DNA of 64,000 nt from Escherichia phage JP4. The stretch lies in sequence record PQ330092, one strand, 5' to 3'. Below are positions 30,756-31,739 of the stretch, one piece after another; position 1 is the first letter of the stretch, and every line of letters starts with the position of its first letter. The position numbers were made by a program, and so were the translations under genes. Under the pieces are notes generated by a model, which saw only the letters and a list, made by a program, of their open reading frames with translations, searched no databases and was not told the origin of the DNA.

Positions 30756-31169
30756 ATGAAGAAGTGTATCACGTGTAATATTGAAAAAGACATTAGTGAA
30801 TTTGGTATAAGAAAAGATACTGGGAAACATAGAAATACATGCAAAGGTTGTAGTAATATTACCAGTAAGAAAACCAGAAATAAAAAAACTGATGTCAAAA
30901 AACTTGAAGAAATCAAAAGAAAAAATAAAGATTTCATGACCAGAGTTAAATCATTTTATGGTTGTAGTATTTGTATGATGAAGTATCCAGAATGTTTAGA
31001 CTTTCACCATCTTGACCCTAATACCAAAGAACATACACCAAGTTCTATGTTCAGTAAAAGTCGAGATGTTATAAAAGATGAAATTCGAAAGTGTATGATT
31101 CTTTGTTCTAATCACCATCGCATGGTACATGCTGGTAGACTATGTTTAATTGAAAGAAAAAAGGGTTGA
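30756..31169 (+). CDS. HNH endonuclease (possible homing endonuclease)
   Basis: CITCN..CKGC Zn-ribbon-like N-terminus; HNH core LDFHHLDPNTK..LCSNHHRMVH. Confidence 0.65.
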   Translation: MKKCITCNIEKDISEFGIRKDTGKHRNTCKGCSNITSKKTRNKKTDVKKLEEIKRKNKDFMTRVKSFYGCSICMMKYPECLDFHHLDPNTKEHTPSSMFSKSRDVIKDEIRKCMILCSNHHRMVHAGRLCLIERKKG

Positions 31170-31195
31170 CTACGGTCAGCCCTTTTTGCTATAAT
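31163..31195 (+). promoter_or_regulatory. fused terminator-promoter module
   Basis: gggttgac-tacg-gtcagccc hairpin containing the HNH gene stop TGA, T-run, TATAAT 18 nt after TTGACT. Confidence 0.6.
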
Positions 31196-31223
31196 CATTT
31201 CATCGAAACGAGAGGATGAATAC

Positions 31224-31739
31224 ATGACACGCATTAACTTAGTACACGTTAAAGAACTTGCTGACCAACATCTGATGGCTGAATATCGTGAACTCCCACG
31301 TGTATTTGGTGCTGTACAAAAACACGTTCAAGCACGTAAGCGTGTACGTGATTTCAAAATTAACAGTACTTACCTGTTGGGTTCAGGTCATGTAACATTC
31401 TTCTACAACAAGTTATTGTACTTACAGAAGCGTCATATTGATATTGTCAACGAATGTCTGCGTCGTGGGATGAAGATTCAAAACACTGAAGTAAACGACA
31501 TTAGCGGCTTCCCTGCTGAGTTTTGTAATGACTACGCACCATCGGAGTCAGAGATTAAAATGTCTCGTGATCGTTTGATTGAGAAGCTCCAGATGAAGCC
31601 TACGTGGTATAAGTTTACTGATGTTGAATGTCCACAGTACGTTAAAGATATGCAGAACGTAAGTAGTAAGAACGAATCTAGTACTGATATGTTCGACGAA
31701 ATTGAAGAACAAATCAAAGATGAAATGAATAATTATTAA
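31224..31739 (+). CDS. denV: pyrimidine dimer DNA glycosylase / endonuclease V (T4 DenV homolog)
   Basis: [49 protein letters not shown] matches T4 endonuclease V along its length; has a ~30-aa acidic C-terminal extension. Confidence 0.85.

Follow-up and report, generated by a model that had tools for sequence, protein, structure and literature searches.

A resident denV gene with an acidic C-terminal tail and an optional, homing-endonuclease-like HNH cassette in the jumbo coliphage JP4

Two neighbouring genes on the plus strand of Escherichia phage JP4 are the subject of this analysis, which covered a 64,000-nucleotide (nt) stretch of sequence record PQ330092 (here, the window). The upstream gene (30756..31169, +) encodes an intact, Cys-rich HNH-type nuclease of 137 amino acids (aa), and the downstream gene, denV (31224..31739, +), encodes a 171-aa homologue of T4 endonuclease V; both open reading frames (ORFs) lie where a first-pass annotation had placed them. 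That annotation had suggested that the two genes may have moved together, as free-standing HNH genes are often mobile. Comparison with related genomes leads us, with good confidence, to a different reading, in which denV is a resident repair gene and the HNH gene is an optional, homing-endonuclease-like cassette that sits beside denV and is independent of it. All of the parts are of known kinds, namely a T4-type DenV orthologue, a free-standing HNH homing-endonuclease-like gene, and modules that resemble promoter-early stem-loops (PeSLs). Near-identical copies of both genes are already annotated in GenBank (UB, fEgEco12, vB_Ec-M-J).

The source phage is an Asteriusvirus-type, Rak2-like jumbo coliphage and not a T4-type genome. 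Positions 30000-32500 of the window are 94-98% identical to phages of this type, which have genomes of ~350 kb; the closest match is phage UB at 97.1%, and the others include 121Q, PBECO4, G17, and fEgEco12. A synteny comparison with T4-like genomes had been proposed and was made for T4 itself, in which denV stands between ipII and the vs genes with no HNH gene, but it proved uninformative as the source phage is not of the T4 type; in JP4, denV lies instead in an early region of ORFans, behind a hairpin/promoter module. The interval from the homologue of 121Q gene 216 to denV, referred to here as the slot, was compared across the window and 17 other related jumbo-phage genomes (n = 18).

In all 18 genomes denV occupies the same position, while the content of the slot in front of it varies. 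The left border of the slot is the stop codon of the conserved gp216 homologue (30456..30743, +; PHROG 8563). The segment missing from empty-site genomes is 413 nt long (30744..31156, +; alignment A1) and consists of a 12-nt leader and nearly the whole HNH ORF, with borders that are ambiguous by a few bases (an A-run). The slot is 494 nt long in the window compared with 81 nt in the empty genomes, which are 121Q, G17, UE-S1, and PBECO4 (4 of 18). Six genomes (the window, UB, fEgEco12, vB_Ec-M-J, EC.P1, and WPEC3) hold the full HNH gene in a slot of 494-496 nt, and a seventh full copy is found in TH47, where a 507-aa zinc-ribbon-repeat ORF accompanies it and the slot measures 2079 nt. A deletion remnant that keeps only nucleotides 1-6 and 334-414 of the HNH gene is shared by E9.1, WPEC5, and ELP-22 (168-170 nt; 3/18). 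An unrelated 89-aa ORF fills the slot of Ecwhy_1, BF17, and CMSTMSU (342-345 nt; 3/18), and in JNE01 (1/18) the slot contains a block of 1624 nt with a copy of the 119-aa gene found downstream of denV. Present, absent, or decayed from one genome to the next, the HNH gene behaves as an optional gene, which agrees with the earlier impression that it is mobile. The fEgEco12 genome paper lists the HNH protein Gp570 as absent from Ecwhy_1 (PMC13070987). As for the other inserts, the 507-aa ORF of TH47 (contig L016) lies between the HNH gene and the module ahead of denV and contains repeated CPEHGxFE zinc-ribbon units (Pfam DUF4379, DUF723, Zn_ribbon_HMPTM); it may be a further mobile nuclease-associated gene. 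The copy of the 119-aa gene in JNE01 (L017 1895-2254; PHROG 32140, window 32079-32438) is diverged and stands upstream of denV inside the 1.6-kb slot insert.

Joint movement of the two genes as one mobile unit, with the endonuclease bringing the repair gene into the genome, is contradicted by this distribution and appears highly improbable to us. The genes are adjacent and on the same strand, and the frequent mobility of free-standing HNH genes is established (Edgell et al. 2010, as cited in PMC5259590), but denV is fixed in every one of the genomes compared, whether the HNH gene is present, absent, cut down to a remnant, or exchanged for other inserts. Each of the four possible pairings of HNH status with DenV tail type is represented, with HNH and a long DenV in the window, HNH and a short DenV in WPEC3, an empty slot and a long DenV in 121Q, and an empty slot and a short DenV in PBECO4. 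The 507-aa ORF separates the two genes in TH47, and in ph0011 the distance between them is ~3.4 kb greater than in the window. Two distant relatives carry denV without the HNH gene, namely Alcyoneusvirus KP13-7 and the contig L007, the latter with a tailed DenV and the same upstream module. Conversely, the relatives of the HNH gene in Felix O1 and GAP32 stand in unrelated contexts with no denV neighbour. It is more plausible that denV is a conserved neighbour lying outside the mobile unit.

The identification of denV stood up to pairwise alignment with T4 DenV, which gave 84 identities over 131 residues (64%; BLASTP, E = 2e-65). The protein matches Pfam PF03013 (Pyr_excise) at 56.4 bits against a cut-off of 23, PHROG 1183 (1.8e-58), and the sequences of the T4 endonuclease V crystal structures (PDB 2END/1VAS; E = 3.5e-53), the last aligning without gaps from residues 1 to 131 on residues 1 to 131. 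This catalytic core (31224..31616, +) has the pyrimidine dimer DNA glycosylase/apurinic-apyrimidinic (AP) lyase fold and is modelled by AF2 with a pLDDT of ~90, with two blocks around residues 41-60 at ~70. In T4 endonuclease V, Thr2 supplies the alpha-amino nucleophile once the initiator Met has been removed, and the roles of Glu23, Arg3, Arg22, and Arg26 are established. The JP4 protein, which begins MTRINL, shares Thr2, Arg3, Arg22, Glu23, and Arg26 as well as the W128-Y129-K130 aromatic segment. In a 40-sequence alignment (A6), T2, R3, R22, E23, R26, and Y129 are invariant and W128 and K130 nearly so (at least 90%). The chemistry is presumably the same as that of the T4 enzyme, with glycosylase and AP lyase activity through the N-terminal amine. 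Distinct variants in denV, counted per codon among 13 genomes, number 15 nonsynonymous and 40 synonymous in the core, or 0.11 nonsynonymous variants per codon. We would place denV as a resident orthologue of T4 endonuclease V with a T4-like catalytic core.

The upstream gene had also been called correctly, as the protein matches PHROG 2255 'HNH endonuclease' (E = 1.8e-32) and carries an HNH motif. Its architecture is made up of two CxxC...CxxC pairs followed by DFHH...CxxxCxNxHRxxH, and the residues C4, C7, C29, C32, C70, C73, D82, H84, H85, C113, C117, N119, H121, and H125 are invariant in alignment A4; a large protein collection yielded only six homologues. The pattern C70xxC73...D82-F-H84-H85...C113xxxC117-x-N119-x-H121-R-xx-H125 is, as read from the alignment, the classical zinc-stabilised HNH motif. 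Some results weigh against the assignment. Searches with the protein against Pfam, NCBIfam, and PDB sequences returned no matches, and Foldseek matches to the AF2 model (pLDDT 87.5) were weak, none having an E-value below 1e-3; the best was PacI (E = 0.05), and Cap5, Gme HNH, and T5 SciA were also among them. The assignment as HNH is therefore based on the motif together with the PHROG match; both of these lend it good support, but structure does not. The nearest relatives in isolate phages outside the genus are those of GAP32 (47% identity) and Felixounavirus (~41%). No paralogues were found in the window or in the related genomes, each record having the gene in one place. In the GenBank record of UB (L001 2258-2672) a 64-aa 'HNH endonuclease' coding sequence is annotated, yet the full 137-aa ORF is intact, so this is a discrepancy of annotation and not a truncation.

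The right side of the cassette runs into a composite terminator/promoter module of the PeSL-like kind (31163..31195, +). The hairpin (31163-31182) has the form GGGTTGAC-TACG-GTCAGCCC and is followed by a run of five T (31183-31187) and by TGCTATAAT. The -35 box lies at 31166-31171 and the extended -10 element at 31187-31195, with the -10 hexamer at 31190-31195. The promoter-like site agrees with 11 of the 12 positions of the sigma-70 consensus and has an 18-nt spacer and the TG of an extended -10, and the folding energy of the hairpin is -20.7 kcal/mol (z = -5.7). TTGACT (31166-31171), which is both the -35 box and part of the 5' arm of the hairpin, contains the HNH stop codon, TGA (31167-31169). 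The first-pass observation that the HNH gene ends within the terminator-promoter module ahead of denV is borne out in this detail, with the module's TTGAC providing the stop codon of the gene.

Taken together, the sporadic distribution, the precise 413-nt indel, the shared remnant, and the pattern of variants give the usual picture of a free-standing homing endonuclease gene. None of the seven full copies of the HNH gene is disrupted, and each retains all of the invariant Cys, His, and Asn residues. Their distinct variants are 18 nonsynonymous and 9 synonymous, the opposite of the denV core, which points to relaxed constraint. The gene can be described as an optional 413-nt cassette that sits precisely between the stop codon of the conserved upstream gene and the module. 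Most probably this is a free-standing homing endonuclease gene, or was one until recently; such a gene would spread in mixed infections into HNH-less sister genomes through double-strand-break repair and then decay, a step that would fit the three genomes with the same internal-deletion remnant.

Free-standing HNH homing genes of large lytic phages include T4 mobE and other mob genes, and the HNH genes of the tRNA regions of T5 and Felix O1. The JP4 gene resembles them in being a small intergenic gene between conserved genes, sporadic in near-identical genomes, with no promoter of its own, relaxed constraint, and decayed copies. It differs in that the HNH models of Pfam and NCBIfam do not cover it, PHROG 2255 alone matching it, in that its homing is predicted from sequence, and in that its stop codon is embedded in the terminator/promoter hairpin of a neighbour. 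Its homologue in Felix O1, ORF47, lies between tRNA genes, and that of GAP32 lies beside a structural gene. A second candidate selfish nuclease is encoded three genes downstream of denV (33396-34514, +). This 372-aa ORF matches PHROG 559 'HNH endonuclease' (7e-24) and PHROG 9084 'homing endonuclease' (7e-16) and has no Pfam match; homologues of differing length carry the annotation endonuclease or homing endonuclease in 121Q, ELP-22, E9.1, and vB_Ec-M-J.

Several points count against homing as the explanation. Nuclease activity, site-specific cleavage, and homing are predictions for this HNH family. Among the 18 genomes the flanks of the slot are mosaic, and no co-conversion haplotype or clear co-conversion tract is tied to the presence of the HNH gene; JNE01 apart, the only difference that separates empty from occupied sites is one of 2 nt near the 3' end of the upstream gene, in its final codons. 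On its right side the cassette borders on the recombinogenic module itself, so that the cassette could be gained or lost without endonuclease action. It is conceivable, then, that the HNH gene is not an active homing endonuclease but an accessory cassette, with another nuclease role or none, that is passively shuffled by homologous or illegitimate recombination at PeSL-like modules. Such shuffling would account for the unrelated inserts that share the slot (the 89-aa ORF, the 1.6-kb block, and the zinc-ribbon-repeat protein). The HNH gene and the 89-aa ORF both end in GGT TGA inside the module, and fEgEco12 provides an example of a deletion from module to module. Against this, the left border of the cassette has no module, so simple module-by-module recombination cannot by itself excise or insert the cassette. 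The HNH family acts like homing endonuclease genes in being small, free-standing, and intergenic in unrelated phages, tRNA clusters included, and the zinc and catalytic residues are kept despite the relaxed overall constraint. Passive shuffling is thus a credible rival, though in our estimate an unlikely one, and the homing-endonuclease-like cassette independent of denV is the reading we retain.

In T4-like phages, modules are shuffled by way of PeSLs, cassettes in which a terminator and a promoter are combined (Arbiol et al. 2010, PMC2839356; Comeau et al. 2014, PMC4122927). The modules of JP4 have in common with them a repeated intergenic GGG...CCC stem-loop with a sigma-70 consensus promoter, clustering among short ORFans, and indel junctions that fall inside the element. 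They differ in their host genome, as PeSLs are known from T4-like Straboviridae and the present modules are from a Rak2-like jumbo phage, and in their construction, the -35 hexamer here being part of the hairpin stem in a very compact 33-nt unit. A loose gapped pattern of the module has 8 matches in the window, compared with 0.07 expected by chance. The full 33-nt consensus (GGGTTGACTTCGGTCAGCCCTTTTTGCTATAAT, at most 7 mismatches) has 7, all on the plus strand and between 20.7 and 34.6 kb (20697-20729, 23940-23972, 25465-25497, 26550-26582, 31163-31195, 33108-33140, and 34522-34554). Equivalent hairpins are annotated as terminators in phage G17, and the distant contig L007 has a near-identical module before denV that differs at 5 of the 33 nt (3 in the hairpin loop). 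What must be set against the functional reading of these modules is that both their promoter and their terminator activity are predictions.

Directly after denV lies a half module, GTGTTGACTTCGGTTACAC (31746..31764, +), a chimeric junction that folds weakly (z = -0.4). In fEgEco12 (L005 5027-5065) a complete module follows denV at this point and is joined straight to the gene that starts at window position 34585; the ~2.8 kb in between (~31750-34530 in the window) are missing, and the junction falls in the module. In the reading that we retain, the slot is also a general hot spot for the exchange of other cassettes, and the repeated PeSL-like modules would act as recombination junctions.

The locus is best read as an early, hyperplastic region of short ORFans punctuated by PeSL-like modules. 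A promoter-like site with a 12/12 match to sigma-70 (TTGACA-16-TATAAT; 29279..29306, +) likely marks the start of a five-gene early transcription unit that ends with the HNH gene, the same-strand ORFs after it being 29354..29908, 29920..30096, 30101..30472, 30456..30743, and 30756..31169. The HNH gene lacks a separate promoter and appears to close this unit. denV would probably be transcribed by the host sigma-70 RNA polymerase from the hairpin-embedded promoter 30-60 nt upstream, and then translated from a good Shine-Dalgarno-like site, GAGAGGA (31210..31216, +), 7 nt 5' of its ATG. In the related phage CBB, endonuclease V lies within an early region rich in RpoD-type promoters (PMC5259590). 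A further single-gene indel is found in this early region: a 252-nt gene (121Q gp214) lies between the gp213 and gp215 homologues in 121Q (L002 1637-1888), G17, fEgEco12, and others, and is missing from the window (30096-30101), UB, E9.1, and PBECO4.

The second feature of the locus is the C-terminus of DenV. The first-pass annotation had described an extension of about 30 aa with an acidic tail, and this is accurate, as the protein runs 33 aa beyond the 138 aa of T4 DenV and ends in an acidic stretch. No other ORF C-terminus in the window has so high a net negative charge as its last 20 residues (7 D/E, 1 K/R). In place of the last 7 residues of the T4 enzyme (YGKAIYA), the DenV C-terminus consists of three added parts: a 12-residue jumbo-phage segment, a fast-evolving flexible linker, and a conserved acidic terminal peptide. 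The first part (residues 132-143; 31617..31652, +) is common to the DenVs of Rak2-like jumbo phages (alignments A2 and A5) and is shared with DenVs of 144-147 aa, such as those of KP13-7 and CBB. The breakpoint between long and short denV alleles lies at about codon 134 (DNA alignment A3), and megablast matches of several genomes end at about window position 31627; as placed by these alignments, the recombination breakpoints between the two allele types fall within this segment. The linker (residues 144-154; 31653..31685, +) is variable and rich in Ser and Asn, with 0.73 distinct nonsynonymous variants per codon compared with 0.12 in the terminal motif. The 158-aa variants P0009 and P0010 have lost it, and in P0014 and P0016 its sequence and length are unrelated. 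The terminal acidic motif, (E)IExQIKxEMNNY (residues 155-171 and the stop codon; 31686..31739, +), is by contrast conserved. It is retained in the linker-less P0009 and P0010, in P0016 (70% identity; ...YENIERQIKEEMNNY), which has an unrelated 25-residue linker, and in P0014 (73% identity; ...YEDIEQQIKDEMN). When the tail peptide was searched by tblastn against all isolate phages, only DenV C-termini were found, in 18 Asteriusvirus records. A literature search on C-terminal extensions of DenV returned nothing relevant, and within the literature searched this motif on DenV is the only feature of the locus that is undescribed elsewhere.

We consider the tail to be real and its terminal motif to be probably functional, as the motif recurs in distant DenVs with unrelated linkers. 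The conservation appears to act at the level of the protein, since the DNA downstream of the motif differs; in the P0016 contig, the DNA after the denV stop codon is unrelated to that of the window. A regulatory DNA element as the cause of the conservation was considered and rejected, as L007 keeps the motif but has different DNA downstream. The points that weigh against a functional motif are its low-confidence AF2 model (a helix with pLDDT 50-68), the short DenV alleles of 144-145 aa in the same genus (WPEC3, WPEC5, PBECO4, CMSTMSU), the short DenVs of 144-147 aa in many sister phages and sister genera, and the unrelated, non-acidic tails on other long DenVs. Within the genus, moreover, the motif contains no synonymous variants, so selection at the protein level is unmeasurable there.

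These points leave a real, if less than even, chance that the acidic tail has no function and is a by-product of recombination at the denV 3' end, a read-through into new sequence that a solvent-exposed C-terminus can tolerate. A mosaic breakpoint lies at this 3' end, the tails of related DenVs range from 0 to ~40 extra residues of unrelated sequence, short-tailed alleles occur within the genus, and in phage SD-2_S15 a deletion has fused DenV in frame to the next gene. A by-product is harder to reconcile with the terminal 13-17 residues, which are kept in DenVs of only 70-73% overall identity whose linkers are unrelated, and in the linker-deleted variants too, while differing DNA 3' of the stop codon means that this conservation does not come from a regulatory DNA element. 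If the motif is functional, the acidic peptide would most likely be a tethered interaction or regulatory peptide, used for docking onto a partner protein or, by mimicking DNA within the molecule, for tuning non-specific DNA binding. In its fuller form, which we put forward tentatively and hold to be doubtful as it stands, the peptide D-x-[FY]-x-x-I-E-x-Q-I-K-x-E-M-N-N-Y-COOH on its flexible linker would be a functional module added to a single-domain repair enzyme, either docking it to a phage replication/repair hub or mimicking DNA to tune the sliding of endonuclease V on undamaged DNA. The docking version can be likened to the acidic, aromatic-ended tails of T7 gp2.5 and gp4, T4 gp32, and bacterial SSB.

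Two further observations concern the neighbourhood of the tail. In the Salmonella phage SD-2_S15, a 242-aa protein (P0011) joins DenV residues 1-135 in frame with residues 14-119 of the protein of 119 aa encoded downstream (window 32079..32438); the fusion corresponds to the loss of window ~31630-32117, and the related SD-series Salmonella phages have genomes of 310-326 kb with patchy coverage here. A regex scan of the window picked out a peptide of the same 119-aa protein, EDSLIERINYELQKY (residues 43-57; window 32205-32249), that is loosely similar to the DenV motif. It shares the pattern D-x-h-x-E-x-I-x-x-E-h-x-x-Y, with 5 identities in 14 positions and the character of an acidic amphipathic helix, but the likeness is probably due to chance.

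For the biology of these phages, the locus brings together empty sites, intact HNH genes, a shared remnant, and alternative cassettes, a clean natural series in which to study how homing endonuclease genes run through their life cycle in jumbo phages. The modules suggest that PeSL-like elements, known from T4-like phages, give structure to the early region in Rak2-like jumbo phages as well. If the acidic tail of DenV is functional, it could reveal a coupling of the phage glycosylase to other machinery, or a means of its regulation.

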